From the NCBI GenBank assembly GCA_963665385.1, contig OY762213.1, positions 468,846 through 532,845 of the forward strand: a DNA stretch of 64,000 nt, written 5' to 3'. This DNA comes from Dehalococcoidia bacterium (GTDB lineage Bacteria > Chloroflexota > Dehalococcoidia > UBA6926). The notes under the pieces were generated by a model. It was not told the origin of the DNA. It worked only from the letters and a program-made list of their open reading frames with translations, and searched no databases. Each line of letters begins with the position of its first letter. Position 1 is the first letter of the stretch. A program made the translations under genes and the position numbers. Shown here one piece after another: positions 1-52,710 of this stretch.

Positions 1-2139
1 CGGCACCCCGACCTTCTGCAGCATGTGCAGAACCTGGTGCGACGTGAACGCCTTGGTCCACTCACTGATCTCATGGTCGATTTCGTCGCGGTTCGCCCGT
101 CGCCCCTCCCTGTCCGCGAATCGTGGGTCGTCCGCCCAGTGCGGCGCGCCCATCGCCTGTGCGAGAGCCCGCCACTGCTCGTCCGTCTCGCACGCAATGA
201 CGATCCACGTGTCCGGGTACAGGCACGAATACGCGCCGTAGGGCGCGTAATGGGCCGCCAGAGGCTCGTCATAGCCCACGCTGCCCCAGATGTTCCCGTT
301 GATCGTGTAGTCCAGGATGGCCGGGCCCATCATCGATCCCTGGCCGTCCACCTGCGCAATCTCGATGAACTGACCCCGCCCGGTTACGTCGCGGAACTCC
401 AGCGCCGCCGCAGTCGAAAGCGCCACAAACGCCGCTCCCACGTAGTCCGGTATCACGCCCTTCGCGTGGTTCTGCATCGGCGAGTCCGGGTGCCCCCACA
501 GCAGCGACAGCCCCGTCACCGCCTGCAGGTTGTTGCCATACGTTACCCAGTTGTTTAGTGGCCCGTCTGATCCCATACCCGGCATACCGATCTGGATGAT
601 GCCCGGGTTGATCTTCGTCAGATCGTCGTAGCCCAGCCCAAGCCGCTTCATGACCGTCGCACTGAAGTTATCGACGACAACGTCGCTGTCTTTAGCGAGC
701 CGACGGAACAACTCCTTGCCCTCATCCGAGCGCAGATCGACCGTGCAACTCAGCTTGTTGCGGTTCATGTCTGGGAACAGCGGACGTGTCGGCTCACGGT
801 TCGCCTCAAGGCTTGCAGACTCCACCTTGATAACCTCCGCGCCATAGAACCCAAGGAACATCGTCCCGATGGGCCCTGCAAACGCGCGCGTGATGTCCGC
901 CACGCGAATGCCGTCCAACAGCGCCGCATCCGGCGCTTTGCCGTTCGTCGGGGCAGAATACGTCTCGCGTCTCGGTGAAACCGTCTCGATCTCGGCCAGC
1001 ACCTCATCGCGATGCTGGTCCAGAAGAGGCGCAGGGCGCGTCTGGTTCCATGGCGTCGCCGACATGATGAACGGCTGACCCGGCGTCTCGTACTCGCCAA
1101 CGACAGGATGCGTCACTTTCTGGAACCAGCCCCGTGACCGCATATGGTCGTCTGTTACAAAATCCTCGAACGTATTGACCGGGCAGCAGGCGAGGCCGCG
1201 CTTCTGCGCCTCCTCCACGAACTCATCGCGGTCGAACTGCTCGACAAACGACTGAATCAGTATCTGCGCGAGGTCCTCGTTGTCCGTCCGGTACTGGGAC
1301 GAATCCCAGTCATCATCGGACAGCACCGCGTCCTCCATCCATTGCCGGGACAGAACGCGCCAATGGCCGGTCATAAAGATCGCAATCTGAACGTACTTGT
1401 CATCCTTGGTTCGATAGATATTCGCGGGACCGCCACGTGGGCCTTGCCGCGTCACGATCTCGCTCCGCTGGCTGTAACGCGCAATCGTGCCGACCGTCGC
1501 GAACGTCAGCGCCTCCTGCAGCGACAGGTCGATGCGCTGCCCGCGTCCCGTCGCCCGCCGGTGCCGTACCGCGTTGATCGCCAGGTACGCCCCGTGAACG
1601 GCCGCGAGCTGCGACCCAATCTGGCACGGTAGAACGACCGGTGAGCGCTCATCGTCGCCCTGGCTCATCATCACTCCGGACATGGCAGAGATGATCGCCT
1701 CATTGGCCGCAAAGTGGCTGAACGGCCCCGTCTGCCCGAACGGCGTCAGCGAGACGGTCACAAGCCCCGGATTCAACGCCTCCAGCCGCGCGTCATCAAT
1801 CCCCAACTCAGCCAACTGGCCGGGAGTTGTGCACTCCACAAAAACATCGGCGCGCTCGATGAGCTTCTCCAAAGTCTCTCGACCGCCCGAGTCATCAATA
1901 TCCAGCACGATGCTGCGACGGTTCAGATTGGCGTTCAGAAACTTGATGCCGCGCTCCGGGTCCGCGATGTCGCCGGCGAAGGGCCCATGCATCCGGTTTG
2001 GATCGCCCCCCGGCGGCTCCACCTTGATTACATCCGCGCCGAGCCCCGCGAGGAACCCCGCGCAATACGCCGCCGGAATCTCCCCAATCTCAACAACCCG
2101 CAGATGCCCCAGCGCCGAATCCCTATTCCCGTTAGTCAT
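1..2139 (-). CDS. Family III (CaiB/BaiF) CoA-transferase with two transferase modules fused in one ORF; C-terminus lies outside the window
   Basis: Absent from the ORF track because it has no stop inside the window. Manual reverse translation from ATG (2139) gives MTNGNRDSALGHLRVVEIGEIPAAYCAGFLAGLGADVIKVEPPGGDP. It stays open (checked 781-2139 and 1-60) through APLLDQHRDEVLAEIETVSPRRETYSAPTNGKAPDAALLDGIRVADITRAFAGPIGTMFLGFYGAEVIKVES, a second N-terminal-type CoA-transferase motif about 400 codons in. It ends at the window edge with WTKAFTSHQVLHMLQKVGVP. The + strand ORFs here are Arg/Pro-rich shadows. Confidence 0.8.
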   Translation of the reverse strand, partial: MTNGNRDSALGHLRVVEIGEIPAAYCAGFLAGLGADVIKVEPPGGDPNRMHGPFAGDIADPERGIKFLNANLNRRSIVLDIDDSGGRETLEKLIERADVFVECTTPGQLAELGIDDARLEALNPGLVTVSLTPFGQTGPFSHFAANEAIISAMSGVMMSQGDDERSPVVLPCQIGSQLAAVHGAYLAINAVRHRRATGRGQRIDLSLQEALTFATVGTIARYSQRSEIVTRQGPRGGPANIYRTKDDKYVQIAIFMTGHWRVLSRQWMEDAVLSDDDWDSSQYRTDNEDLAQILIQSFVEQFDRDEFVEEAQKRGLACCPVNTFEDFVTDDHMRSRGWFQKVTHPVVGEYETPGQPFIMSATPWNQTRPAPLLDQHRDEVLAEIETVSPRRETYSAPTNGKAPDAALLDGIRVADITRAFAGPIGTMFLGFYGAEVIKVESASLEANREPTRPLFPDMNRNKLSCTVDLRSDEGKELFRRLAKDSDVVVDNFSATVMKRLGLGYDDLTKINPGIIQIGMPGMGSDGPLNNWVTYGNNLQAVTGLSLLWGHPDSPMQNHAKGVIPDYVGAAFVALSTAAALEFRDVTGRGQFIEIAQVDGQGSMMGPAILDYTINGNIWGSVGYDEPLAAHYAPYGAYSCLYPDTWIVIACETDEQWRALAQAMGAPHWADDPRFADREGRRANRDEIDHEISEWTKAFTSHQVLHMLQKVGVP

Positions 2140-2213
2140 AACCATTCTCCCCACCGATTAGGCGCTCGCTTCTCCGCCACCTCGCTATATCCCCTCAAGC
2201 CCCGCTCATTCCC

Positions 2214-2237
2214 TCATTCCGGCGAAAGCCGGAATCC
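2214..2237. repeat. Family-A palindromic intergenic repeat (REP/MITE-like hairpin)
   Basis: TCATTCCGGCGAAAGCCGGAATCC has a perfect 8-bp stem ATTCCGGC/GCCGGAAT with a GAAA loop. A near-identical copy lies at 52687-52710 and variants at other sites. Confidence 0.8.
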
Positions 2238-2324
2238 ATCCTGAGCAATGTGAGCGCCCCAATCTGCGAGTACGATAGGCGTCCCACGTTGGCGGGTCAA
2301 GAAGCAGACCAGTCCCCTCCCCCC

Positions 2325-2354
2325 GTCATTCCCGCGCAGGCGGGAACCTGAATC
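2325..2354. repeat. Family-A palindromic repeat
   Basis: GTCATTCCCGCGCAGGCGGGAACCTGAATC, stem TTCCCGC/GCGGGAA. It shares the GTCATTCC head with the other copies. Confidence 0.75.
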
Positions 2355-2417
2355 ACAATGACGCAACCCAACCTCGTAACGCCGCTCATCCCCTTGCCCC
2401 CACCTCTCATAGTCAGT

Positions 2418-2447
2418 AGGGTAGACACAAAACAACACGTCTACCCT
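2418..2447 (+). promoter_or_regulatory. 9-bp inverted repeat just upstream of vapB (possible autoregulatory operator)
   Basis: AGGGTAGAC (2418-2426), 12 nt, GTCTACCCT (2439-2447), abutting the GAGGAA Shine-Dalgarno and the ATG at 2459. Confidence 0.35.
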
Positions 2448-2458
2448 GAGGAACGACA

Positions 2459-2722
2459 ATGAGCCTGAACATCAAGAACGAGGAAACCTGCCGCCTCGCC
2501 GAAGAACTGGCAGCCCTAACCAAAGAAAACAAGACGCAGGCAATCACCATCGCCCTCCAAGAGCGCCTCGAACGCCTGCGTCAAGACCGTGAGGCAAGAA
2601 TCGCGGCAGAAATCGCCGATATGGAGGCCATCGCCAAGCGCGCCGCTGCCCTCATGGGCCCCGGCCCGTCCGCCAAGGAAATCCGGGACTCTCTCTATGG
2701 CGAGTTCGGCGAGCCAAAATGA
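2459..2722 (+). CDS. vapB: Type II antitoxin, VapB-like
   Basis: An 87-aa ORF (MSLNIKNEETCRLAEELAALTKENKTQAITIALQERLERL). Its stop overlaps the start of the downstream PIN gene (ATGA at 2719-2722), the classic antitoxin-toxin arrangement. Confidence 0.7.
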   Translation: MSLNIKNEETCRLAEELAALTKENKTQAITIALQERLERLRQDREARIAAEIADMEAIAKRAAALMGPGPSAKEIRDSLYGEFGEPK

Positions 2723-3105
2723 TCATCGACACATCGGCGATCTGCGCCATTCTGTTCGAGGAACCGGATGCCAGATACTACACAGAAGCTATCGCGCAAG
2801 CGGATGAACGTCGGATGTCAGCAGGCAATCTTCTGGAAGCGTCAATGGTCATTGAAAGTCGCGGCGGTTCTGCGATGGGTGAACGGCTTGATGAACTCAT
2901 CGAGAGAAGGGGAATAGAAATCGTTCCCGTAACCGCTCAACACGTCGCCGTCGCCCGACGCGCCTGGCGAAGTTTTGGCAAAGGCAACCACCCCGCCGGC
3001 CTCAACCTGGGCGATTGCCTCGCCTACGCCCTCTCAGAAATGACCCAAGAACCCCTCCTCTTCAAAGGCCAAGACTTCACCCAGACGGATATCCACACCG
3101 CCTAA
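2719..3105 (+). CDS. vapC: PIN-domain ribonuclease toxin VapC
   Basis: 128 aa. MIIDTSAICAILFEE (N-terminal acidic PIN residue), EASMVIES, and LNLGDCLAYALS followed by LLFKGQDFTQTD. This is the typical VapC layout, translationally coupled to vapB. Confidence 0.85.
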   Translation: MIIDTSAICAILFEEPDARYYTEAIAQADERRMSAGNLLEASMVIESRGGSAMGERLDELIERRGIEIVPVTAQHVAVARRAWRSFGKGNHPAGLNLGDCLAYALSEMTQEPLLFKGQDFTQTDIHTA

Positions 3106-3120
3106 CCCAATAGGCTCCCC

Positions 3121-3258
3121 ACTCCGGCAACTCTATCCGTCATTCCAGCGAAGGCCGGAATTTATCCCGTGGCCCGTGGGGGCCACCACGTATCACCCAC
3201 ACTGCGGCAACTCCGTCCGTTCCCCGTCATTCCGAGCGCGAACGCGGAATCTGGAATC
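3121..3258. repeat. Two tandem roughly 80-bp units, each ending in a family-A palindrome
   Basis: ACTCCGGCAACTCTATCCGTCATTCCAGCGAAGGCCGGAATTT (3121-3163) and ACTGCGGCAACTCCGTCCGTTCCCCGTCATTCCGAGCGCGAACGCGGAATCTGGAATC (3201-3258). Confidence 0.7.
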
Positions 3259-3304
3259 TCACTTACCGGCGACATTTGTCTCCGAAGAGCTTGTTGCCTG
3301 AACG

Positions 3305-4813
3305 CTATTCAGGTGCTCCCATCAGGTAGCCGGTAGTCAGGCCCTGTTGCTTAATCCAGTCCTTCACTTCACGGTCAGTGTCCATTCTGATCCGGTCAAT
3401 CTCGGAATCTGCCGGCGCATCCCACATCTTCCAGTCGACCAACCGAGCTACACACTCCCGAATCTGTTTCAATTGATCTTCGCTCAGGGTTCGGTACAAA
3501 GGCTTGGTTTTATCATCAGAGTCGTACAATTCGAGCTTTGCGCAAATCGCATCCCTTAGAACCTCTGCCCAAGCTTTCATGAATCTGGCGCGAATCATTC
3601 GTGTCAGCCTTCTCTGAATGGGGTTATCCTTACTTGCCCTTGGATCCCACTGATCCAAGGCAAGGTTATAGATCATGTTCATTAGACTGACCATGTTCTC
3701 TGATTCGTCTTGCCTCTTGTAATCATCAGTGGTCATATTGTCATTGACGGGCTCCCGAAGCAGAAAGTAGGAGAAGAGGGAGTTGGTCAAACCATTCAAA
3801 GTGATTGGGCTGCTTTCGCTAGCACGATTCGTCACTGAGATAAGCTCGGAGAGGTGATTTTCCTCGTCCTTAAGTATGGAGTCGTATAGGAAATTGCGAA
3901 ACCTGTTCCTGCCTTCCGCGTGGGTTAGGCTGTCTTTCTTGCGAAGATGCTGAATGAAACCGGCCTCACTCTTGACTTCACCGTCTTCCAGATCCTTGTA
4001 TTCATCAAAATCGCCACGAAACTGAGCCCCCAGCTTCATTACCATAATCGAAGTATAGAATCGTGTTTGCGAATATTTGTCATGCGCATCAATGTTCGTA
4101 TCGCTCAGCAGGCGCATTTCTGGATCCAGATAGATCTTGCATTCCAATTCTCGGCGGTTGTTCCACAACAATGCAGCGGCTTTGTGTTGACCATCGAAGA
4201 GCTTGATGCGGCCGTTCGTAATCCTCCCTAAAGAAGGTTGCAATACCGGGTGTATCTGGAAGTGGCGGAATAGGTCGAACACCTTGCCGAAGATCAGATA
4301 ACGGGGCTGTAGACCGATGCCCTGGTCGCTGTCATCGTCACTGTCCAGCAATGCTACTGGCAATGTTGCGTAAAAGTAGTCCCAAGATGTGACTGGGCAT
4401 TTGTATAGCTGAAAGTCGCCAGAGAAGGATGCCGATTGGATTGCGACGCTATCTTGCGAAACCCGTGCGGATATCGGTTGACCATAGTCATTCAGCATGT
4501 CTGTTGCTTTGAAATGGTCGAGCAAGTTACCGAGTGTTAGTTTATCGCCCTTGGAGAAGAACTCTTCCAATTGCAGCCTTGCCCTGAAGTCGAAAAGCCG
4601 TAGTGTGCCCTTTTCTCGATTGTGTTGTGCACACATTGGAGCAATATTGTTGATTTCGGTCGCCCCGCCGGTGGCGTATGCGCGTATGTGGTCGAATTGA
4701 GGCGACTCGGCGTCGGGAATATCGTGTCCCGTTGCAAAGCAGACCCGCCCGTGCTGTTGAAGTACGCGCTCTTTCTCGTCGTCAGTGAGTTGGCGACCAA
4801 GTGTGACTGTCAT
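3305..4813 (-). CDS. HNH endonuclease fused to a DGQHR (DndB/ParB-like) domain, plus an uncharacterised C-terminal half
   Basis: 502 aa. The N-terminus CFATGHDIPDAESPQFDHIRAYATGGATEINNIAPMCAQHNREKG is a His-Me finger pattern. The mid-region RIKLFDGQHKAAALLW is a DGQHR-type motif. Sampled blocks are 40-52 % GC against about 57 % in thrS. Confidence 0.65.
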   Translation of the reverse strand: MTVTLGRQLTDDEKERVLQQHGRVCFATGHDIPDAESPQFDHIRAYATGGATEINNIAPMCAQHNREKGTLRLFDFRARLQLEEFFSKGDKLTLGNLLDHFKATDMLNDYGQPISARVSQDSVAIQSASFSGDFQLYKCPVTSWDYFYATLPVALLDSDDDSDQGIGLQPRYLIFGKVFDLFRHFQIHPVLQPSLGRITNGRIKLFDGQHKAAALLWNNRRELECKIYLDPEMRLLSDTNIDAHDKYSQTRFYTSIMVMKLGAQFRGDFDEYKDLEDGEVKSEAGFIQHLRKKDSLTHAEGRNRFRNFLYDSILKDEENHLSELISVTNRASESSPITLNGLTNSLFSYFLLREPVNDNMTTDDYKRQDESENMVSLMNMIYNLALDQWDPRASKDNPIQRRLTRMIRARFMKAWAEVLRDAICAKLELYDSDDKTKPLYRTLSEDQLKQIRECVARLVDWKMWDAPADSEIDRIRMDTDREVKDWIKQQGLTTGYLMGAPE

Positions 4814-4934
4814 TTCGAATCCCCTTGTAGCTTGGATGCACTCGTAGGACGTGCCGTCAAATAGTAAGGGACTGGTGTCTGCTACGCAAAATCACACGGC
4901 GATTCTACGCAGGGCTGAGAGTCACTACGCCTAC

Positions 4935-6719
4935 CTACCCCCTCCCCGCAGCCACCTCCCCCAGCACCCGCTCCGCAAATTCCGATATAGCCACCGCCCC
5001 CAGGTTCTCGCTGTTCTCCCGACGACGCACCGCCACGGTCTCCGACTCCGCCTCGCGGTCGCCGACAACCAGCATGTAGGGCACGTGCCGCGTCTGAGCC
5101 TCGCGGATCTTCGCGTTCATCCGCTCGTTGCGATCATCGATCTCACAACGAAGTCCTGCAGCGTGCAGCTGCTCCTGCACCTGCTGTGCGTACGGGATAT
5201 GCCGGTCAGCGATGGGGATGACCGTCGCCTGCACCGGCGCCAGCCACACCGGGAACGCCCCCGCGTTGTGCTCCAGCAGCACCCCGAAGAACCGCTCCAA
5301 GGACCCAAGAATCGCGCGGTGAATCATCACCGGCCGCTCGCGCGTGTTGTCCTCCGTCACGTATTCCAGATCGAACCGCTCCGGCAGGTTGAAGTCCAGC
5401 TGGAACGTGCTCAACTGCCACTCGCGACGTAGCGCGTCCTGTGAGAACAGATCGATCTTCGGCCCGTAGAATGCCCCCTCATTGGGTATCTCTTCGAAGT
5501 CCGCCCCCGCCAGCGTCAGCGCCTCACGCAGCGCCTCCTCCGCCTGGTCCCAAGTCTCATCGCTACCGACACGCTTCTCGGGCCGCAGCGACAGCGTGTA
5601 ACGAGGCTCATTCAGCCCGAACGCCTCATACACGTCGCGCATCATCCGTATTAAGGACGAAAACTCATCCTGTACCTGGTCCAAACGACAGAAGATGTGA
5701 GCATCATCCTGCGAAAAACTCCGAACACGCGTCAGCCCATGCGTCACGCCGGACCGCTCATTCCGATGCAGCCGCCCAAAGTCCGCCAAACGCAGCGGCA
5801 GCGCGCGATACGAATGCAGCTGCGACTGATACACCACGCAGTGCCCAGGGCAATTCATCGGCTTCACCCCGTACTCGATCTCATCTGACTGCGTCAGGTA
5901 CATGTTCTCCAGGTAATTGTCGTAATGCCCCGACTGCTTCCACAGGTCGGTCAAAAAGATTTGCGGCGTTATGACCTCTTGGTAGCCGTACCTGTCATAC
6001 AGCTCGCGGATGAAATCAACCATCAGGTTGTAGACCGTCGCCCCCTTTGGCAGGAAAAACGGGCTCGCCGGCGCGATCGGGTCGAAGAAGAACAGGTCTA
6101 AGTCGCGTCCCAGCCGCCGGTGATCCCGCCGCTCCGCCTCCGCCAACCGCTCCAGGTGCGCGTCCAGCTCCTCCTGCGTCTCGAACAGCGCCCCGTAGAT
6201 ACGCTGTAACTGCGGATTGCTCTCATTGCCGCGCCAATACGCCCCCGCCACGCGCGTCAGCGTGAATGCCCCCGTCTTATCAGTCGACTCCGCATGAGGC
6301 CCCTGGCACAGGTCCGTGAAATCCCGATGCGAATACGTCGAGACCGTCTCATCCGTCAGGCTCTCGATAATCTCCACCTTGAAAGGCTGATCCGCGAATC
6401 GTGTCAGCCCCTCCTCACGCGGCATCTCGCCCGCGACGAACGGAGCCGCCGATGCCGCGCTCTCCCGCATCCGCGCCTCGATCTCCGGCAGATCGTCCGT
6501 GGACAGCGTGCGCGGCAGCAGAAAATCGTAATAGAACCCGTCCTCGATGGGCGGCCCTATCCCAAGCTTCGCCTCTGGGAACATGGACAGCACGGCCTCC
6601 GCCATCATGTGCGCGGCGGAGTGCCGCATCCGGATGAGCGTGTCGTCCGCCCCCGCATAGCGCCCTTCAAGCGCGCCATCATGCCCGGTGTCTGATGCGT
6701 GACCTTCTTGATGGGACAT
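4935..6719 (-). CDS. thrS: Threonine--tRNA ligase (no N-terminal TGS domain)
   Basis: 594 aa. The HSAAHMMAEAVLSMFPEAKLGIGPPIEDGFYYDF editing-domain motif already appears at residue about 33. Class II core motifs (FSQDDAHIF, GAFYGPKID) and a C-terminal anticodon-binding domain are present. Confidence 0.9.
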   Translation of the reverse strand: MSHQEGHASDTGHDGALEGRYAGADDTLIRMRHSAAHMMAEAVLSMFPEAKLGIGPPIEDGFYYDFLLPRTLSTDDLPEIEARMRESAASAAPFVAGEMPREEGLTRFADQPFKVEIIESLTDETVSTYSHRDFTDLCQGPHAESTDKTGAFTLTRVAGAYWRGNESNPQLQRIYGALFETQEELDAHLERLAEAERRDHRRLGRDLDLFFFDPIAPASPFFLPKGATVYNLMVDFIRELYDRYGYQEVITPQIFLTDLWKQSGHYDNYLENMYLTQSDEIEYGVKPMNCPGHCVVYQSQLHSYRALPLRLADFGRLHRNERSGVTHGLTRVRSFSQDDAHIFCRLDQVQDEFSSLIRMMRDVYEAFGLNEPRYTLSLRPEKRVGSDETWDQAEEALREALTLAGADFEEIPNEGAFYGPKIDLFSQDALRREWQLSTFQLDFNLPERFDLEYVTEDNTRERPVMIHRAILGSLERFFGVLLEHNAGAFPVWLAPVQATVIPIADRHIPYAQQVQEQLHAAGLRCEIDDRNERMNAKIREAQTRHVPYMLVVGDREAESETVAVRRRENSENLGAVAISEFAERVLGEVAAGRG

Positions 6720-6755
6720 CGTCGTTCATTTCTCCTTGCGCTAGTCCTATCTATA

Positions 6756-7913
6756 ATGACGAATGAAACGCAAAGCTTGAAAGAGGCTGAACAAGTGCCC
6801 GATTCGATATCACCCGAAACCCACTCCCGCCAGCGCCAACTCCTCGAAGAGCTGTCCAACGCCTTCGGCCCCACCGGCCACGAGGGCCCCGTCCGCGCCA
6901 TCGTCCGACGCGAGATGGATTCCCTCGCAGACTTTGTCGAGACAGACGGCATCGGCTCTCTCATCGCTCGCATCGGAGAGGAATCAGATGACGTTCCCCG
7001 CATCATGCTCTCCGGCCATATGGATGAAGTGGGCCTCATGGTCCGCCAGATCACAGCCGAGGGCTACCTCACCATTCAGCCCCTCGGCGGCTGGCTTGAC
7101 CAGGCACTGATAAACCAGCGTTGGGTCGTCATGACACGCAACGGCCCCATCCCCGGCCTGACCGGCATCAAGACCCCACACGTCATGCAGCCGGACGCCC
7201 GCAACCAGGTATTCAAGAAAGAAAGTATGTTTATCGACGTCGGCGCGACCAACAAGGAGGACGCTGAGCAGCGACTCGGCATCCGCCCAGGCGATCCCAT
7301 CGCGCCAGACAGCCGCTTCCAAGAGATGGCCGGCGGCGAACTCTATATCGGCAAGGCGTGGGATGACAGGGCAGGGGTGGCCGGACTCATCGAAATAGCC
7401 CGAGCCCTGAGTGAATCCGCAGATCCACTCCCCGCCACCGTCTACCTTGTCGCCACCGTTCAGGAAGAAGTCGGCCTGCGCGGCGCGCACACAAGCAGCT
7501 TCCACGTCATGCCGGACATAGGCATCAACCTTGAGTCCGGCGTCGCGGGGGACTACCCCGGCATCACCAAAGACGAGGCCCAGGAGGAGCTCGGCAAAGG
7601 CCCGACCGTCTTCCTCCATGACAGCTCCATGCTGCCTAACCTGCGACTGCGCGATTTCTTTGTCGATACAGCCGCCGAACTCGAGATGCCGCTCCAATTC
7701 AACGTCCTCAGTGGCTATGGAGAAGACGGCGCGGAGATGCAGAAAGCAGGCTCCGGCGCCCCCTCTATCAACATCGCCGTCCCCACTCGCTACCTGCACA
7801 GCCATAACGGCGTCATCCACCGCGACGACTTCGCCAACGCCGTCCGCCTCGTTACAGAAGTCGTCCGCCGCCTCACCCCGGAAACCGTCTCAGCCCTGAC
7901 CACCTTCGACTAA
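6756..7913 (+). CDS. M42 family aminopeptidase (FrvX/PepA-like)
   Basis: LLEELSNAFGPTGHEGPVRAIV and IMLSGHMDEVGLMV motifs. The ORF-track start at 6699 would overlap thrS. The ATG at 6756 or the GTG at 6795 (after AAGAGG) is more likely. Confidence 0.8.
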   Translation: MTNETQSLKEAEQVPDSISPETHSRQRQLLEELSNAFGPTGHEGPVRAIVRREMDSLADFVETDGIGSLIARIGEESDDVPRIMLSGHMDEVGLMVRQITAEGYLTIQPLGGWLDQALINQRWVVMTRNGPIPGLTGIKTPHVMQPDARNQVFKKESMFIDVGATNKEDAEQRLGIRPGDPIAPDSRFQEMAGGELYIGKAWDDRAGVAGLIEIARALSESADPLPATVYLVATVQEEVGLRGAHTSSFHVMPDIGINLESGVAGDYPGITKDEAQEELGKGPTVFLHDSSMLPNLRLRDFFVDTAAELEMPLQFNVLSGYGEDGAEMQKAGSGAPSINIAVPTRYLHSHNGVIHRDDFANAVRLVTEVVRRLTPETVSALTTFD

Positions 7914-8001
7914 TCCCTTTCCCAACCCCCCGCGCAGGCAAGGGGAGGCAAGCGCGTCGTGGATGCAACCTTTATGATGAACGCAACTTGACTACAGGAG
8001 T

Positions 8002-9477
8002 TTGGCAGTGCCTCTCATTCCCAAGGTGATGAGCACCCAGCACCCGGACAACGCTGCGGCGCCTTCCTACGCAGTTGATGGAGTAATCAAGGGCGACGGC
8101 GAGATTATCGAGGCCGTCGATGCCTTCAGTCTCGGCTGCGATGAGCAGATGTGGGACTCGGAAGGCAAGGACACTGATACCCACGTCGTTCAGAAACTTC
8201 TTAGCAATTACTCCGACTACTTCCGCGAGGAGCGACGGTTGGGACGCGACACCGTCATCACCCTGCGCGTCCCCAACCCCGCCATCGAGGTTGAGATGCG
8301 GAAGCTGATGGTTGAGGCGCTGCAGGGCATCCCCACCGCCTTCGATGTGGCCCGCGAATTCTACGGCGGTGACCTGGAGCCGCCCATTCAGGAGATCATT
8401 CTCCCCTTCACCACCTCCGCCGACGAACTCTCTCGCATTGCGGCTTACTACGAGAACTTCATCGTCGGACAAGAATCACGCACCCTCCTGGGCGACGTAT
8501 CCGTTCGCGATTGGATAGGCGAGTTTCTCCCGAAACGCATTCGCGTTATCCCGCTCGTGGAATCGCGCGATCAGATGCTCCACGTCGATGACATCGTCCG
8601 CGAGTACCTGCGGGAGCGTGAGGAACCCTACCAGCGTGTCTTCTTGGCACGCAGCGACCCCGCCCTGAACTACGGTATGGTTGGCGCGGAAATCCTGCTC
8701 AAGACCGCCCTCTACCGTGTTGACCGGCTCGCGCAGGAGACCGGCATTCCTATGTACCCGATTATTGGCGCCGGCTCTGTCCCGTTCCGTGGACACTTGA
8801 AGCCCACCAACACCGCGCGGGCCTTCCGTGAGTACCCCAGCGTCCACACGCTCACCGTGCAGTCTGCATTCAAATTTGACTACCCTCGTGATGACGTGAC
8901 GTCGGGCATCGCCCAGATCCAGGCTCACGACCAGACTCCTGCGCCGCCGATCGATGAACAACGCGCCATCGCCATACTGGACAAGGCCGCCGCAGAGTAC
9001 CAGAAGCAAGTGCGCAACCTTGCTCCGACAATCGCCACAGTCTCGGCGCTCTCCCCGCGGAGGCGAGAGCGCAAACTGCACGTAGGACTATTCGGCTACG
9101 GACGCTCACTCTCCGGCTCAGACGACGTTACGCTGCCCCGCGCTATCGCTTTCGCCACTGCCCTCTATTCCATAGGCGTTCCGCCGGAATTGCTCGGACT
9201 CGCCGCCCTCGACCAGGAGGATTTCGCCTACCTGCGGGAGATATACCCAAGCTTTGTAGACGATCTCGCCACAGCGCTCCGCTACGCGAACGAGACTCGC
9301 GTAAACCAACTGCTCGGCGACAACTACCGGCGACTGCTCGTTCGCTTCACGGAAGAAATCGACCGCATTCACGAAGGACTCACCACGGCGGTGTGGGCGA
9401 GCATTGAGCAAGGCGCAACAACGCAAGTGTCGCACTACATCGCGGAAGCAGGAAAACTCCGGCGCTTCTTGGGTTAA
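8002..9477 (+). CDS. ppcA: Archaeal-type phosphoenolpyruvate carboxylase (PEPcase type 2)
   Basis: A roughly 490-aa protein with the IPKVMSTQHPDN signature near the N-terminus. The true start is probably the GTG at 8008, 7 nt after AGGAG (7996-8000). Confidence 0.8.
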   Translation: MAVPLIPKVMSTQHPDNAAAPSYAVDGVIKGDGEIIEAVDAFSLGCDEQMWDSEGKDTDTHVVQKLLSNYSDYFREERRLGRDTVITLRVPNPAIEVEMRKLMVEALQGIPTAFDVAREFYGGDLEPPIQEIILPFTTSADELSRIAAYYENFIVGQESRTLLGDVSVRDWIGEFLPKRIRVIPLVESRDQMLHVDDIVREYLREREEPYQRVFLARSDPALNYGMVGAEILLKTALYRVDRLAQETGIPMYPIIGAGSVPFRGHLKPTNTARAFREYPSVHTLTVQSAFKFDYPRDDVTSGIAQIQAHDQTPAPPIDEQRAIAILDKAAAEYQKQVRNLAPTIATVSALSPRRRERKLHVGLFGYGRSLSGSDDVTLPRAIAFATALYSIGVPPELLGLAALDQEDFAYLREIYPSFVDDLATALRYANETRVNQLLGDNYRRLLVRFTEEIDRIHEGLTTAVWASIEQGATTQVSHYIAEAGKLRRFLG

Positions 9478-9501
9478 AGGCAGGAAATACAATCTCCCTC
9501 C

Positions 9502-9533
9502 GTCATTTCGAGCGCAGACGAGGAATCTGAGAC
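9502..9533. repeat. Family-A repeat, degenerate variant
   Basis: GTCATTTCGAGCGCAGACGAGGAATCTGAGACC directly after the ppcA stop. Confidence 0.6.
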
Positions 9534-9612
9534 CCTGATTGACTAACGGCGCTGGAACGCGACCCCGCAACCTCACAGGGCACCCAACGACAGTCGCGAA
9601 CCGAGAAAAAAC

Positions 9613-9641
9613 TTGACACTTCGCCCTATTCGGCGCATAGT
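9613..9641 (+). promoter_or_regulatory. Candidate sigma-70-type promoter for pyrG
   Basis: TTGACA (9613-9618), 17 nt, CATAGT (9636-9641). This implies a leader of about 170 nt before the ATG at 9820. Confidence 0.3.
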
Positions 9642-9819
9642 GAGATTCGGTATCCGGTTCGGTGATTTTATCCCTGAACCATGCTGTACCAAACGTTCCC
9701 CATAGACCCGTTGCGACACTCCTTTAAGGGTGTGTGTATGCGTGGAATGACGGGTGGAGAACGAAGCAGGCGTGAATCGCCCCCCGAGATGATCCGGCGG
9801 GGCAGGCCATTGGGGATAC

Positions 9820-11577
9820 ATGGCAAAGTACGTCTTCGTGACCGGCGGGGTCGTTAGTTCAATCGGCAAGGGCATCACCGCCGCCGCAATCGGCCGTCTC
9901 TTTACGAGCCGTGGCATAAGGGTCGCAGTTCAAAAACTCGATCCGTACCTCAACGTCGACCCCGGCACCATGTCCCCCTATCAGCACGGCGAGGTCTTCG
10001 TCACCCGAGACGGTGCTGAAACAGACCTCGACCTTGGCCACTATGAGAGATTCGTCGATACCGAAATGACACGCTCATCCAGCGTCACCGCAGGACAGGT
10101 CTATTCCTCGGTCCTCTCGCGAGAGAGGCGCGGTGACTTCCTTGGCGGCACCATCCAGGTCGTTCCACACGTGACAAACTCCATCAAGAACCGCATGAGG
10201 CAGATCGCGGACGAGACCAACGCGGAGGTCATCATCATTGAAGTCGGCGGCACCGTCGGCGACATTGAGGGCCAGCCCTTCCTTGAAGCCATCCGCCAGG
10301 TCCGCAACGAGGTTGGCCGTGCTGACGCCATTTTCGTTCACGTCACCTATCTTCCGTACCTCCACGCCACCGGAGAACTCAAGACCAAGCCCACGCAGCA
10401 CTCCGTCCGTGAGCTGGGCCGGAGCGCCGGCATCGCGCCTGACGTCATCATCGCCCGCAGTGAAGTTGAGGCCACGCAGGAGACCATTGAGAAGATAGCC
10501 CTGTTCTGTGACGTTGAGCCGCAGGCCGTCATCCCCCTCTCCACCGTGGACACCATCTACCGTGTCCCCCTTCTTCTTGAAGAACGCGGCCTCGGCGACT
10601 ACCTCCTTAATAGGATGCAGTTCGCGGAGTATGCCGAGAAAGAACCGCAGCTCGATGACTGGCGCGATCTCGTCCGACGGTTCGACGAACCCAAGCCCCC
10701 TCTGACCGTCGCCATCGTCGGCAAGTACGTCGAACTGCGTGACGCCTACCTTTCCGTTAAGGAAGCCCTTACGCACTCGGGCCTTGAGATCGGTGTCGAC
10801 ATTGAAATTGACTGGGTCGCTGCCGAGGAGCTGGAAGAAGACGGCTGGGAGGCCCTGTTGCAGCGCGCGCACGGCATCGTCGTCCCCGGCGGCTTTGGCG
10901 AGCGCGGCATCGAGGGCATGATCCGCGCCGCCTCGTACGCCCGTGAACAGCGCGTCCCCTACCTTGGTCTCTGCCTTGGAATGCAGATAATGGTCATTGA
11001 ATTCGCGAGAAATGTTGTCGGCCTTGTAAACGCAAACTCCACCGAGTTCGATGTCGCCACCCGCCACCCCGTCATCCACATCATGGAAGACCAGGAGCGG
11101 GTCCGTGCCATGGGCGGCACCATGCGTCTCGGCTCATACCTCTGCCACCTCACCCCCGGCACCAACGCCGCCCGCGCCTATGGCAACCCGGAGACCATTG
11201 TTGAGCGGCACCGCCACCGCTTTGAATTCAACAACGCCTACCGTTCCTCCTTTAACGAATCCGGCTTAATCGTCAGCGGCGCCTATCGTGAACTCGATCT
11301 CGTTGAGATCTCTGAATTACGTGATCATCCCTTCATGGTTGGGACGCAATTCCACCCGGAATTCAGGTCACGCCCCACGCGCGCCCACCCTCTATTTCGT
11401 GAATTCGTCTCGGTGGCCGCAGGCATCTTGCGCGAAGGAGAGCAGCCGCCGCTCATCGTTGCCCAGGACGGGCTTGCGCATCCTGCCCAACGACTTGACC
11501 CATCTCCCTACGGCGCAGCGCCCGTCCGGCGTGATCAAACAGCCGAACAGACCCGCAGCGCGGGGACCGGATTCTGA
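9820..11577 (+). CDS. pyrG: CTP synthase
   Basis: MAKYVFVTGGVVSSIGKGITAAAIGRLF N-terminus and a C-terminal glutamine amidotransferase domain (GLCLGMQ, HRHRFEFN). It carries a roughly 40-aa C-terminal tail. Confidence 0.95.
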   Translation: MAKYVFVTGGVVSSIGKGITAAAIGRLFTSRGIRVAVQKLDPYLNVDPGTMSPYQHGEVFVTRDGAETDLDLGHYERFVDTEMTRSSSVTAGQVYSSVLSRERRGDFLGGTIQVVPHVTNSIKNRMRQIADETNAEVIIIEVGGTVGDIEGQPFLEAIRQVRNEVGRADAIFVHVTYLPYLHATGELKTKPTQHSVRELGRSAGIAPDVIIARSEVEATQETIEKIALFCDVEPQAVIPLSTVDTIYRVPLLLEERGLGDYLLNRMQFAEYAEKEPQLDDWRDLVRRFDEPKPPLTVAIVGKYVELRDAYLSVKEALTHSGLEIGVDIEIDWVAAEELEEDGWEALLQRAHGIVVPGGFGERGIEGMIRAASYAREQRVPYLGLCLGMQIMVIEFARNVVGLVNANSTEFDVATRHPVIHIMEDQERVRAMGGTMRLGSYLCHLTPGTNAARAYGNPETIVERHRHRFEFNNAYRSSFNESGLIVSGAYRELDLVEISELRDHPFMVGTQFHPEFRSRPTRAHPLFREFVSVAAGILREGEQPPLIVAQDGLAHPAQRLDPSPYGAAPVRRDQTAEQTRSAGTGF

Positions 11578-11697
11578 TACTCGCCCAACCAAATCTTTTC
11601 CTTTAAGTACTTAACAACCGACGACCAACACCGAACGAGCAAACAAAGTAACAAAAGCCCGGGCATTGTCACATCGCCCGCAGCAAAGGAGACTTAC
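11578..11697 (+). promoter_or_regulatory. C-rich, G-poor leader of rho (rut-like; possible autogenous attenuation site)
   Basis: By my count, 11581-11660 contains 26 C and 9 G. The surrounding genome has roughly balanced G and C. Confidence 0.25.
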
Positions 11698-13593
11698 GTG
11701 GACACCACAGACACCCCCAACCCCGACGAGCCGCAGCGCCCCGTTACACGGCGCGGCATCGCTCGACCGCCGCGCACCCGACGCGCCTCAGCCGCCGCAA
11801 CGACGGAAGCACCCCCGGAGGAAAACTCCGTCGAGGAAGCCGTTGCCGAAAACGGCGCGACACCCGCCGCTCAGCCTGAGCCTGTCGAAGGGACCACCGA
11901 AAACGGCGCAACTCCGGTCGAAACTGCGGAAAACGGCTCGGCCCCCTCCGCCCTCCTTGAGCCTGTCGAAGGGCCCACTGAAAACGGCGCAGCCGCTCCG
12001 GAGTCCCCCTCCCCATCACCGAGGAGGAGTCGAAGTGCGAGTGAAGCGCCCTCCATTACAGACGGCCTTCCACCTGCAACCATGACCACCACCACAGAAA
12101 CCATCGAAGACATCGAAGACGAAGCACCGCCCCGCCGCGCGCCACGCCCACGTCCCGCCAACGGTGCAGGGCAGCGGCGACGCGAACGGCCGGACCGCGG
12201 TGACCGCCCCAACCGGGCCCCCCGTGAAAGCGGAGGCCCACGCCCACCCGCCAACACTGACGACGCCGATTCTGACTCCCAACAGCGTGAGCCGCGTGTC
12301 GTTGATCTGCCGGAGGCGCTTCACCAGGTCACCATCCCGCAGCTTGAGTCTCTTGATCGTGACGAGGCCGGCCGCCTCGCTGAATTCCTCAACATGCCAC
12401 CCGGCGCCGCCGTCCGACGTGATGAGATGGTCCATCGCGCCATCCAGACCCTCGGCGAGCGCGGCGGAACAATCACCGCCAGCGGCATCCTTGAGATCAC
12501 CAATGACGGCTACGGCTTCATCCGGCACCGCACTCTCCGCCACAACATCAACGATGTCTACGTCGCCCAGTCGCAGATCCGCCGATTCAGCCTTCGCACC
12601 GGCGATTGGGTAACAGGGCAAGTCCGCTCACCCAAGAGCGGCGAGAAATACTACGGCCTCCTCCGCGTTGACACCGTCACCGGCCAGGAACCGGAGATCT
12701 CCCGCCGCCGCCCCGTCTTTGACCAGCTCACAGCCCTCTTCCCCGATCGACTCTATGACTTGGAGACGAATCAGAAGGCCATCGCCGCCCGCTTGCTCAA
12801 CCTCGTCGCCCCTATCGGCTTCGGACAGCGAGCGTTGATCGTCTCCCCCCCCAAGGCCGGAAAGACCATTCTTCTCCACCAGATCGCAGACGCCATCACC
12901 TCCCAATACCCCTCCACCCACATCATGGCCGCCCTCATCGGTGAGCGACCGGAAGAAGTCACAGACTGGGAGCGCACCGTTAAAGGTGCAGAAGTCATGG
13001 CCTCCACCTTTGACGAGCCCGTTGAAGAACACACCCGCGTCGCGGAGCTCGTCCTCGCCCGCGCCAAGAGACTCGTTGAAGCCGGCCAAGACGTCGTCAT
13101 CCTCCTTGACTCCATCACGCGACTCGCCCGCGCCTACAACATCGCCGCCCCCTCCAGTGGCCGCACACTCTCCGGCGGCATGGACCCCGTCGCCCTCTAC
13201 CCCCCCAAGCACTTCTTCGGCGCAGCGCGTAACACGGAGGAATCCGGCACCCTCACTATCGTCGCCACCTGCCTCGTTGACACCGGCTCCAGGCTTGACG
13301 ATGTCATCTACGAAGAATTCAAAGGCACCGGCAACATGGAAGTCCACCTCGATCGCAAACTCGCCGAGCGTCGCATCTACCCCGCCATTGACGTCCTCAA
13401 ATCCGGCACACGGCGTGACGAGCGACTCTACGACGAAAAGACCTACCGCGGCATCGTCACCCTCCGCCGCATGATGGCCATGCTCTCAAACTCCAACCTT
13501 GACGCATCCGACGCCACAGAGCGCATCCTTGACCGCATCTCAAAGACCAAGACCAACGCCGATTTCATCGCCACACTCTCCCGTGAAATCTAA
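11698..13593 (+). CDS. rho: Transcription termination factor Rho with a roughly 215-aa low-complexity N-terminal extension
   Basis: GTG start 6 nt after AAGGAG. C-terminal two-thirds: an RNA-binding cold-shock-like domain ([14 protein letters not shown]), Walker A (VSPPKAGKT) and [12 protein letters not shown]. The N-terminus is Pro/Glu/Ala-rich, then Arg-rich. Confidence 0.9.
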
Positions 13594-18695: not shown

Positions 18696-19904
18696 CCCCG
18701 CCTCAACCCCCAAGAACCGCCCAATATCCCCAACCTCACCCCGCACCTCATCCCAAATAGACCCCAGCGCCCCCTCCATCCCCGGAAACGCCTCAACCGA
18801 GATCTCAAGCCGTTCGTCATTCCCGCGAAGGCGGGAACCTCTCAGCCGCGTCCACGACCACGTCGCCACCGCAAGCCCATCGATAGTCACGACGGGCCGG
18901 ATCATCCCCCCGCCCGCATTCACCCGGGACATATACTCCGGCGCAACCGCCAACCCCCGCCCCCGATACCCAAGCAAATAAGTATCAAAAAACCCCAACA
19001 ACCTCACAAGAGGCCCGTCATTCCCGCGCCCCTCGCTGTCATTCTGAGCGGAGCGCAGCGCAGTCGAAGAATCTAAAGCCTCATTGACCCAACCAACCCC
19101 CGTAACGCCGTCCACCACCCACATCCCCTCCCCCTCAACATCAACCTCCACCAACTCACCCGAGATCGCCCCAAACCCCGCCCGTGCGTCCCTGAGAGGC
19201 AGCCCCGACCACACAGCGAAGTCACGCTCCGTCGAGGGCCCAAACGCCCTGATATACCGACTCGCCAGCCGAGCGAGTGCCTCATCGCGCGAGAGCTCCG
19301 GCCGCTCGATCCCCGCCAGCCATGAATCCGCCGCCACAAAAGTCTCCGTCTTGCCGTCCAGCAGCGGCCCGTGCGCGATCACGCCCAAAAACCCCCCAGC
19401 CCGCACAACATGATGCAGAGCCTGGTTTGCAACAGGGATATCGTAAGTAGCCAGACGCTCCGCTAACTGCTGCCGTGGCAGCGGCCCCTCAGTACTAAGG
19501 ACATCGACCGAGTGCTTAAGCGCCTCGTCCAATGTCCTGTCATCAAGACCGAGTTGGTGTCGCCTTCCGCGTCCGGCTGAAAAGGAGGATGCTCCTAGCA
19601 GAGCAGTCATCCATCTGTGATCTTCTGCAGGAATCAAATGCAGCGTCCCACGCATCGCCCACGTCCGGACGATGGAGCGATCCTGTGAGAGTGCCCTATG
19701 AACATCGGACGCGAAGAGCCCGGAACTGCGAGCACGAACTTGCAACGGCGCAGTATTCATATCCTGCGCTTGTATACCGCCTGTGCCCCGCACGATGTCC
19801 AATACCGGATCCGCGCTAGTCTGTGGACTTATCGCCCCATCCAACCCCTGAGAGAGAACACGAATCCGCCGCGCCTCATCGGGAGTGAGGGTAAAGGCAG
19901 GCAT
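18684..19904 (-). CDS. Winged-helix DNA-binding protein, YcaQ/DUF1006-like, carrying in-frame repeat insertions
   Basis: MPAFTLTPDEARRIRVLSQGL, IVRTWAMRGTLHLIPAEDHRWM and VRLLGFFDTYLLGY. The ORF-track start at 20012 would overlap the upstream gene, so the internal ATG at 19904 is preferred. Confidence 0.6.
   Translation of the reverse strand: MPAFTLTPDEARRIRVLSQGLDGAISPQTSADPVLDIVRGTGGIQAQDMNTAPLQVRARSSGLFASDVHRALSQDRSIVRTWAMRGTLHLIPAEDHRWMTALLGASSFSAGRGRRHQLGLDDRTLDEALKHSVDVLSTEGPLPRQQLAERLATYDIPVANQALHHVVRAGGFLGVIAHGPLLDGKTETFVAADSWLAGIERPELSRDEALARLASRYIRAFGPSTERDFAVWSGLPLRDARAGFGAISGELVEVDVEGEGMWVVDGVTGVGWVNEALDSSTALRSAQNDSEGRGNDGPLVRLLGFFDTYLLGYRGRGLAVAPEYMSRVNAGGGMIRPVVTIDGLAVATWSWTRLRGSRLRGNDERLEISVEAFPGMEGALGSIWDEVRGEVGDIGRFLGVEAGLGE
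18816..18845. repeat. Family-A repeat inside the ycaQ-like CDS
   Basis: GTCATTCCCGCGAAGGCGGGAACCTCTCAG. On the coding strand it reads LRGSRLRGNDE. Confidence 0.75.
19018..19075. repeat. Family-A half copy plus a full variant copy inside the ycaQ-like CDS
   Basis: GTCATTCCCGCG then CCCCTCGCT then GTCATTCTGAGCGGAGCGCAGCGCAGTCGAAGAATC. It is translated as ALRSAQNDSEGRGNDG. Confidence 0.7.
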
Positions 19905-28016: not shown

Positions 28017-28041
28017 GTCATTTCCGCGAAAGCGGGAATCC
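28017..28041. repeat. Family-A palindromic repeat between convergent genes
   Basis: GTCATTTCCGCGAAAGCGGGAATCC. It sits where a bidirectional terminator would be expected. Confidence 0.7.
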
Positions 28042-52667: not shown

Positions 52668-52686
52668 CCCGCCAACGAGTCTCCCC

Positions 52687-52710
52687 TCATTCCGGCGAAA
52701 GCCGGAATTC
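52687..52710. repeat. Family-A palindromic repeat
   Basis: TCATTCCGGCGAAAGCCGGAATTC, essentially identical to 2214-2237. Confidence 0.8.

Follow-up and report, generated by a model that had tools for sequence, protein, structure and literature searches.

The gene described here occupies positions 3305 to 4813 of a 64,000-nucleotide stretch of contig OY762213.1 from a Dehalococcoidia bacterium (assembly GCA_963665385.1, positions 468,846 to 532,845), referred to below as the window. It encodes a candidate defense nuclease of 502 amino acids, in which an HNH domain is followed by a linker, a predicted ParB/sulfiredoxin (Srx)-fold core and a helical domain specific to the family. The open reading frame (ORF) is real, as had been proposed in an earlier note made from the sequence alone; it lies on the minus strand, starts with ATG and is preceded by a Shine-Dalgarno-like site. 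Its parts are as follows.

3305–4813, minus strand: whole gene for the 502-residue HNH / ParB-like / helical-domain protein (ORF list, ATG start; stop codon at 3305–3307).
4821–4826, minus strand: Shine-Dalgarno-like AAGGGG, 7 nt 5' of the ATG (read from the sequence).
4544–4813, minus strand: HNH (beta-beta-alpha-metal) domain, residues 1–90 (PF01844, HNH profile matches, Foldseek).
4340–4543, minus strand: linker, a helix and a five-stranded beta unit, residues 91–158 (secondary structure of the AlphaFold2 model).
4058–4339, minus strand: acidic SDDD loop, then the predicted ParB/Srx-fold core, residues 159–252 (Foldseek, motif conservation).
3308–4057, minus strand: family-specific all-alpha domain, residues 253–502 (AlphaFold2 model of the domain alone).

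The earlier note had read a His-Me-finger pattern at the N-terminus, and profile searches bear this out. PF01844 matched residues 25–69 of the window protein at 22.5 bits, against a gathering cut-off of 21.4 bits, and was matched by 50 of 58 divergent relatives with a best expectation value (E) of 1.3e-11. The catalytic residues are D41-H42 (nt 4688–4693), N56 and N65, and the metal site comprises C25, C61 and H64. Throughout the superfamily, even at ∼20% overall identity, C25, D41, H42, N56 and N65 each reach at least 90% conservation, and within the core family C61 and H64 do not vary. Based on the conservation of these residues and the PF01844 matches of the relatives, the catalytic center looks intact. 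A profile of the family matched the HNH domains of group II intron maturase (1.3e-13), several Cas9 proteins, IscB, Gme HNH, McrA and T4 endonuclease VII in the PDB, and Foldseek comparison of the AlphaFold2 model related the same part to NmeCas9 HNH, Gme HNH, McrA and Cap5. NCBIfam models returned HNH-type cross-matches (IscB, Cas9d, retron HNH) and sub-threshold DGQHR matches only for the protein and its family, and a sequence search of the PDB with full-length profiles returned HNH chains only.

Downstream of the HNH domain, the AlphaFold2 model of the whole protein (mean predicted local distance difference test score, pLDDT, 83.9) shows a linker for which no fold or family match was found (residues 91–158). 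Residues 101–140 are the most variable part of the protein, with a conservation of 0.47–0.49 vs 0.75–0.85 elsewhere. The core that follows is the most conserved segment (mean column conservation 0.84) and carries Q169-P-R171, R197 and F206-D-G-Q-H-K211 (nt 4181–4198). The last of these lies within RIKLFDGQHKAAALLW (residues 201–216), is invariant in the core family, and is at least 90% conserved in relatives that are only ∼20% identical; counted from the aspartate, its fifth position is occupied by lysine in ≥90% of superfamily members. In Foldseek searches of the PDB the core was related to Noc, PadC, ParB, KorB, sulfiredoxin and SbnI at a probability of 0.99–1.0, with E-values of only 3e-3 to 5e-2 and target-normalized template modeling scores of 0.5–0.73 for Srx. 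Viral ParB/Srx proteins in BFVD likewise matched the central core of the predicted model. Neither database held a full-length analogue, the matches being ParB/Srx-fold proteins and HNH domains only, and BrxU, SspE and DndI were absent from the top 50 Foldseek matches of the model. The phosphate-binding GxxR motif of the ParB fold would correspond to G208-Q-H-K211, with lysine in place of arginine.

The C-terminal part, in which the earlier note recognized no motif, has indeed no match in Pfam, NCBIfam, PADLOC or PHROGs, and no PDB chain was found for it by sequence. When residues 253–502 were modeled alone, AlphaFold2 returned a confident all-alpha fold (pLDDT 90.2, predicted template modeling score 0.88), for which Foldseek found nothing meaningful in the PDB (best E 2.0, probability ≤0.11). 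E283, R367, E370 and W464 are invariant across the superfamily.

The gene had been called an orphan, which it is not: a homologue search returned at least 889 clusters at 90% identity. Among the best 120 of these that were listed, nearly all proteins are 500–505 amino acids long, 55–82% identical and mostly unnamed. Exhaustive HMMER searching with the non-HNH part gave 369 superfamily representatives at 50% clustering, mostly of 480–560 amino acids and with the match starting at residues 135–190; thus, even distant relatives keep the complete architecture. When one genome per species was scanned, 410 loci turned up among 185,579 species (∼0.2%), distributed over more than 15 phyla plus one Thermoplasmata archaeon. 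The phyla include Chloroflexota, Planctomycetota, Verrucomicrobiota, Acidobacteriota, Bacteroidota, Spirochaetota, Proteobacteria, Ignavibacteriota and Omnitrophota, together with metagenome-assembled genomes (MAGs) affiliated with Thermotogota, Firmicutes and Actinobacteria. Identity to the window protein was 41–64% over this whole taxonomic range, and the occurrences come mainly from uncultured soil, sediment and aquatic lineages. No paper on this family or its DGQHK motif was found in the literature. In four loci (L008, L078, L082, L083) the gene is split into two ORFs, through either a frameshift or an assembly error.

The family is all but missing from mobile replicons. Neither the 72,556 plasmids nor the 50,697 phage genomes searched with tblastn gave a match, and only three distant matches were found in the 2.9 million contigs of IMG/VR. 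The only reasonably close viral-contig homologue (34% identity; L086, IMGVR_UViG_3300037160_000193, 557–11844) lies between large tail-associated genes, namely a non-contractile tail sheath TIM-barrel gene and a collagen-repeat gene, and looks like a moron-type insertion.

No conserved partner gene emerged when all neighbors of 82 loci were clustered. The neighbor clusters comprised HsdM in nine loci, HsdS in eight and HsdR in seven, with SNF2/DrmD-like helicases, type III Res proteins and integrases in four loci each; no dnd-type partner recurred among the 82, the census being dominated by restriction-modification (R-M) and not dnd genes. Among the 138 immediate neighbors, the commonest Pfam families were ResIII, DEAD, N6_Mtase, EcoEI_R_C, SWI2/SNF2 and Eco57I, and the commonest PADLOC families were the type I restriction endonuclease and methyltransferase. 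The enrichment near defense genes that the earlier note proposed to look for was seen: 18 of 81 non-redundant loci adjoin, or lie within, clusters of type I or type III R-M or DISARM-like genes, and R-M families head the neighbor census. In L037 the order is integrase, DrmD-like helicase (8.7e-200), family gene, type III Mod and type III Res; L056 has type III Res directly upstream of the family gene, and in L070 the gene is similarly paired with a type III or DrmD cluster. DrmD- and DrmMI-like genes adjoin it in L013 and a type I HsdR gene in L045, with a similar R-M/defense neighborhood in L044.

The order hsdR-gene-hsdM(-hsdS) recurs in five phyla, at the following loci.

L012: Verrucomicrobiota.
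L024: Acidobacteriota.
L047: Obscuribacterales.
L060: Chloroflexota.
L076: Planctomycetota (hsdR-gene only; gene copy truncated, no hsdM after it).

Spacing within this unit ranges from overlapping to 60 nt, except for a kinase insertion in L012. The parts co-diverge (HsdR 58–65%, HsdM 70–76%, family gene 59–67% identity), so the unit travels as an operon. Further loci pair the gene with unrelated type I families (L030, L032, L077), the HsdM proteins being only 26–37% identical to those of the five-phylum group. The composite operon of L012 (7460–18273, Limisphaerales MAG) consists of hsdR, the family gene, the kinase gene, hsdM, hsdS and two small ORFs. The kinase between the family gene and hsdM is a PD-T4-6/mad6-like Ser/Thr kinase with a zinc ribbon and TPR; a NERD-domain gene follows the operon on the other strand, and a Mu-like portal gene lies upstream. 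A different neighborhood is common to two phyla (∼6500–12600 in L025, L028, L007 and L009): in the Acidobacteriota L025 and L028 the family gene stands between the large (coxL-like) and medium (coxM-like) subunit genes of a CO/xanthine-dehydrogenase-type enzyme, and in the Chloroflexota L007 and L009 it comes right after the medium subunit gene of such an operon.

In the window itself the gene sits in an accessory block beside thrS, together with a toxin-antitoxin pair. The neighboring genes are as follows.

4935–6719, minus strand: thrS, directly upstream of the gene and left border of the accessory block (ORF and translation; synteny in L085 and L052).
2719–3105, plus strand: vapC, PIN toxin gene (Pfam PIN, 1.1e-15).
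2459–2722, plus strand: vapB, antitoxin gene (Pfam PSK_trans_fac, 2.2e-21).

The closest relative of the gene, in L085 (82% amino-acid identity), has the same arrangement as the window: thrS, gene, vapCB, CoA-transferase gene and infC-rpmI-rplT. In this lineage thrS-infC-rpmI-rplT is split by ∼5.5 kb (L085 8092–16690; window 1–6719), the inserted block consisting of the HNH gene, vapBC and a gene for an 800-residue CoA-transferase, with an additional retropepsin-like ORF in L085. Among informative loci of other bacteria, infC directly follows thrS in 46 of 56, and the family gene was absent from all 80 thrS loci examined (metagenome loci, thrS ≤59% identity). Hence the block is accessory DNA inserted into an operon that is otherwise canonical. 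No terminal or target-site repeats flanking the gene were found. A scan for promoters and terminators gave nothing above chance, and no sigma-70-like promoter was seen in the 121-nt gap after thrS, so co-transcription of the gene with thrS is possible.

Sequence comparison at this site suggests both constraint and turnover. When the window is compared with L085, gene and thrS show parallel divergence, with nonsynonymous-to-synonymous rate ratios (dN/dS) of 0.061 and 0.056, respectively; since the value of the gene is on par with that of thrS, the gene is functional and under strong purifying selection. In L052, the thrS is 93% identical to that of the window, making L052 a closer relative than L085, yet the family gene found at this site shares only 55% identity with the window's copy. 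At the DNA level (window 2300–4950 vs L052 10019–12546) the flanks are 84–88% identical, vapBC 71.5% and the gene 63%. The proportion of synonymous differences (pS) is 0.86 (saturated) for the gene vs 0.44 for thrS, the corresponding nonsynonymous proportion (pN) of the gene is 0.28, and the L052 copy encodes 524 amino acids with an altered, extended C-terminus. Gene and vapBC were replaced together in L052 by a cassette of different ancestry between conserved flanks, and the thrS/CoA-transferase interval behaves as a replaceable cassette site. That the L052 copy is simply decaying was considered and rejected, as its ORF is intact over 1.5 kb and its pN of 0.28 is far below its pS of 0.86.

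Composition likewise sets the gene apart. The dip in GC content described in the earlier note is real (0.475–0.52 inside the gene vs 0.60–0.65 in both flanks), with 49.7% for the whole gene; however, thrS has 62.5% and not about 57% as had been stated. At third codon positions (GC3) the values are 0.58 for the gene and 0.80 for thrS. Across the family, 71 of 72 loci have a gene GC lower than that of the flanks (mean difference −8.2 points, r = 0.91). In the syntenic trio (window 3305–4813, L085 10001–11509, L052 10001–11575) the GC3 of the gene is ∼0.58 vs 0.78–0.84 for thrS; it has not drifted to host composition despite a synonymous divergence (dS) of ∼1.6 between window and L085.

The family, in short, is patchy, horizontally spread, strongly constrained and recurrent beside or inside R-M operons. 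The best fit to the HNH and ParB-fold modules, the helical domain, the lack of a cognate methyltransferase, the R-M linkage, the horizontal spread and the allele turnover is that the gene encodes a stand-alone, single-polypeptide defense nuclease gated by nucleoside triphosphate (NTP), a function that we infer by analogy and to which we assign a probability of about 0.5. Under this explanation the central core, a presumed nucleotide-binding switch, would bind and perhaps hydrolyze an NTP, as in GmrSD, BrxU, SspE and DndI, and would, probably via dimerization, license the HNH domains to nick or cut DNA, while the helical domain and the variable linker would supply DNA or target recognition. As most copies, that of the window among them, have no cognate methyltransferase, host DNA would have to be a non-substrate; most likely, the enzyme would attack modified phage DNA in the manner of type IV systems, or else fire only on an infection cue. 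Within the five-phylum hsdR-gene-hsdM-hsdS module, the gene product would complement the type I enzyme, the part that mcrBC and mrr play beside hsdRMS in E. coli K-12. The unusually uniform conservation of the protein is easier to reconcile with recognition of an unchanging chemical feature than of a fast-evolving phage protein, although this argument is weak. A bolder proposal, which we advance tentatively and hold to be clearly less probable, is that the window gene is the founding example of an unrecognized class of single-protein restriction enzymes with the HNH domain first, the ParB-like module second, a DGQHK switch and a helical target-recognition domain without known structural relatives. 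Such a class, 50–65% identical from Bacteroidota to a Thermoplasmata archaeon, would act both on its own and, as an integral fourth gene, within a type I R-M subfamily that spans phyla, and its extreme conservation would reflect the invariant foreign-DNA chemical feature that it recognizes.

Several observations weigh against the reading of the gene as an NTP-gated defense nuclease. The ParB assignment depends on the motif and on a predicted fold for which the Foldseek E-values are weak (3e-3). The earlier note expected Pfam to find an HNH domain together with DndB or ParBc; the HNH domain was found, but ParB_N (PF02195)/ParBc, DndB (PF14072) and DUF262/GmrSD_N (PF03235) never matched the window protein or its 58 relatives, and DUF6551 was matched by two of the 58 at 8e-5. 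The same note saw a close variant of the DndB-defining DGQHR motif; the motif is present and the fold is supported by Foldseek, but membership of the DndB/DGQHR family is not, as TIGR03187 scored 16.4 bits against a cut-off of 58.85. Its weak collinear match places model positions 152–274 on residues 292–421, and even such weak matches were confined to six of 32 and two of 58 family members. The DGQHR domain is defined by a near-invariant DGQHR pentapeptide, a QR pair and the motif FxxxN (PMC4619093); in the present family DGQH is invariant, the fifth residue is lysine, QPR stands at residues 169–171, and no clear conserved FxxxN was identified. No solved ParB, DUF262, BrxU, SspE or DndI chain was found by a sequence search of the PDB with the non-HNH profile, and in a search with that profile aimed at DndB-annotated proteins the best 120 matches listed were all members of the HNH/ParB-like family. 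For profile-profile comparison, IDGQHRL-motif proteins from viral contigs (a mix of DndB, GmrSD_N, DUF6551 and ParB_N) were used, and hhalign against five DGQHR clusters, which were picked by motif and so are partly circular as a test, gave 9–76% probability over 58–81 columns of the ParB core only, with 34–76% for alignments of about 60–80 core residues. Because the curated models fail and hhalign aligns the ParB core only, we describe the central domain as a predicted ParB/Srx-fold module with a DGQHR-like signature, and not as belonging to DndB or DUF262.

The lysine of the motif counts against the reading as well. The arginine at this position is essential for NTP hydrolysis and defense in DndI (R87A; PMC11662687) and SspE (R133A; PMC13251355), so NTP hydrolysis may be absent or altered in a family that carries lysine there. 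The protein is also unusually conserved for a defense gene (47–66% identity across phyla, dN/dS 0.06), and the window protein matched no PADLOC-DB 2.0.0 family at E up to 1. As regards context, ∼78% of loci, including the window, have no recognizable adjacent defense gene and are solitary among metabolic or housekeeping genes. The absence of a methyltransferase partner from the window that the earlier note reported was upheld to the extent that the 64 kb contain no R-M homologue and no amino-methyltransferase motif, C5-methyltransferases, dnd and ssp not having been specifically searched. The R-M enrichment near the gene was judged against general knowledge of R-M gene frequency, and in a crude, star-like neighbor-joining tree the R-M-embedded copies did not form one exclusive clade.

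The R-M linkage admits another explanation, in which the protein is an accessory subunit or guard of type I or type III R-M systems, serving for example as an additional cleavage module or as a back-up that responds to inhibition of the R-M enzyme, as PrrC does for EcoprrI, and solitary copies either depend on R-M genes elsewhere in the genome or are remnants. In its favor are the hsdR-gene-hsdM-hsdS order, which five phyla keep with co-diverging parts and with reading frames that overlap or nearly do so, and the independent pairings with other type I (L030, L032, L077) and with type III/DrmD systems (L037, L056, L070). However, some 78% of loci have no adjacent R-M genes, none occur in the 64-kb window, and solitary copies are purified by selection as strongly as thrS. 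The partner R-M families are moreover unrelated, and the 26–37% identity of HsdM between groups argues against a specific protein-protein partnership. We consider this explanation unlikely.

Somewhat unlikelier is an abortive-infection or toxin effector, in which the ParB-like module senses a nucleotide signal or the collapse of the NTP pool in an infected cell and the HNH domain cuts any DNA, that of the host included, and kills the cell. This is a variant of the defense-nuclease explanation that involves no modification sensing. It is consistent with the lack of a cognate methyltransferase or immunity gene, with the toxin-antitoxin genes that adjoin the gene in the window, L085 and L052, and with the diversity of NTPs bound by ParB-fold domains (PMC12704722). 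No signal-generating partner such as a cyclase accompanies the gene, however, and the high conservation of the entire surface would be explained equally well if an invariant chemical feature were recognized.

A selfish origin, which we regard as improbable, would make the protein a free-standing homing-type HNH endonuclease that spreads by cutting empty alleles, its ParB-like and helical parts providing sequence-specific DNA binding. Single-gene insertions within operons (thrS/infC, coxL-like/coxM-like in L025 and L028, hsdR/hsdM) are suggestive of homing, as are the consistently low GC, the rampant transfer across phyla, the replacement of the cassette together with adjacent DNA, the few split copies and the one distant homologue among phage tail genes. 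Yet the insertion sites are unrelated and share no common target, no intron or intein context was seen at the loci, and homing would be impossible between phyla without homologous flanks. The near-absence from mobile replicons (none in 50,697 phage genomes and 72,556 plasmids; three distant matches in 2.9 million viral contigs) and the long vertical retention at a fixed site, with a dN/dS of 0.06, are likewise unlike a cycle of gain, decay and loss.

A housekeeping or regulatory DndB-like DNA-binding protein (a repressor or DNA-repair factor whose HNH domain has a cellular role) is very improbable: selection as strong as on thrS, a stable position downstream of thrS in one lineage and the many neighborhoods of metabolic genes speak for it, but the gene occurs in only ∼0.2% of species genomes scattered over phyla, the DndB and DGQHR models failed, there is no dnd-type or other conserved partner, and low GC and allele replacement mark the gene as accessory.

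The defense-nuclease reading places the protein closest to the GmrSD/BrxU/SspE/DndI class, type IV or PT-sensing restriction effectors that join a DUF262 ParB-like NTPase to a DUF1524 His-Me nuclease. Both combine, in one polypeptide, a ParB/Srx-fold module bearing D-G-Q-x-(R/K) with a His-Me-finger nuclease, both are without a methyltransferase of their own, and both are found in defense islands or next to R-M genes. DndI and SspE are NTPase-gated HNH nickases with an essential DGQQR arginine (PMC11662687, PMC13251355), and by analogy the present protein would be expected to recognize its target, hydrolyze NTP and activate a nickase (PMC11662687, PMC13251355, PMC4619093). The earlier note took it to consist of GmrSD/SspE-like parts in reversed order. 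The reversed order, with the nuclease first, and an extra domain are borne out, but the parts belong to different families. The nuclease is a canonical PF01844 HNH of the type found in Cas9, IscB and group II introns and not DUF1524, and the ParB-like part is unmatched by sequence to PF03235 or to any solved DUF262 chain. Unlike in DndI and SspE, the motif is DGQHK, is central and has lysine for the essential arginine. The additional 250-residue helical domain has no structural relatives, and both sequence and length vary far less in the family than among GmrSD-type enzymes. The protein is therefore analogous to this class in its proposed working and not a member of it; its parts are not the same families reshuffled.

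Other known proteins share single elements. The DndB/DGQHR proteins (TIGR03187, PF14072) have the DGQH core, an upstream Q..R element (QPR here) and the ParB/Srx fold, whereas the present family ends the motif in lysine, has no dnd operon context and is fused to a nuclease. Proteins with the same two modules are encoded by viruses and giant viruses (L097, L115, L120, L135, L151, L156, L165; IMG/VR, several giant-virus MAGs), and their C-terminal HNH domains were recognized by the HNH profile of the present family (E 7e-6 to 5e-14). In these, however, the order is opposite (N-terminal IDGQHRL ParB-like module, C-terminal HNH) and the motif is a true DGQHR; they measure 345–480 amino acids, have no helical domain and are virus-encoded, whereas the present family is nearly confined to chromosomes. 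Bacterial ParB-HNH fusions receive only a brief mention in a 2025 survey of the ParB-CTPase fold (PMC12704722). McrA and ScoMcrA resemble the present protein in being stand-alone HNH enzymes with a fused recognition part and no methyltransferase, and the HNH profile matches EcoKMcrA, but in McrA-type enzymes the HNH domain is C-terminal and preceded by the reader (an N-terminal 5mC reader, SRA or SBD), and there is no ParB-like NTP module.

If the defense-nuclease reading is correct, the family would constitute a compact (1.5 kb) and widely distributed class of restriction enzymes that current defense-finding tools have missed, and the pairing of a ParB-like NTP switch with a His-Me nuclease would have arisen more than once, from different families and in opposite order. 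The motif would offer a natural arginine-to-lysine variant for probing the ParB-fold switch, and a 250-residue domain without a known structural match may read a DNA feature. The hsdR-X-hsdM-hsdS module, X being the family gene, would allow a direct test of a second nuclease cooperating with a type I enzyme. Should the enzyme prove modification-specific, it could serve as a reagent for mapping DNA modifications.

Two further features of the window complete the description. The vapBC pair adjoins the gene, as the earlier note stated, and is convergent with it, but the palindromic repeats that had been placed on both sides of the gene bracket vapBC instead. The repeat, GTCATTCCNGCGNANGCNGGAAT, is a palindrome resembling repetitive extragenic palindromic (REP) elements, with 7 matches in the window, all on the plus strand, vs a chance expectation of 0.02. 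Around vapBC, 3' of the HNH gene, three to four copies lie close together, and none lies 5' of the gene; the palindromes are a dispersed REP-like family. The positions are listed below.

2213–2235, plus strand: GTCATTCCNGCGNANGCNGGAAT copy.
2325–2347, plus strand: GTCATTCCNGCGNANGCNGGAAT copy.
3139–3161, plus strand: GTCATTCCNGCGNANGCNGGAAT copy.
About 3226–3250: GTCATTCCNGCGNANGCNGGAAT copy.
18816–18838, plus strand: GTCATTCCNGCGNANGCNGGAAT copy.
28017–28039, plus strand: GTCATTCCNGCGNANGCNGGAAT copy.
52686–52708, plus strand: GTCATTCCNGCGNANGCNGGAAT copy.
61496–61518, plus strand: GTCATTCCNGCGNANGCNGGAAT copy.

Elsewhere in the window, a Rho-like ORF of 631 amino acids (11698–13593, plus strand) has a repetitive, Pro/Ala/Glu-rich N-terminal extension of ∼200 residues that precedes its conserved part.

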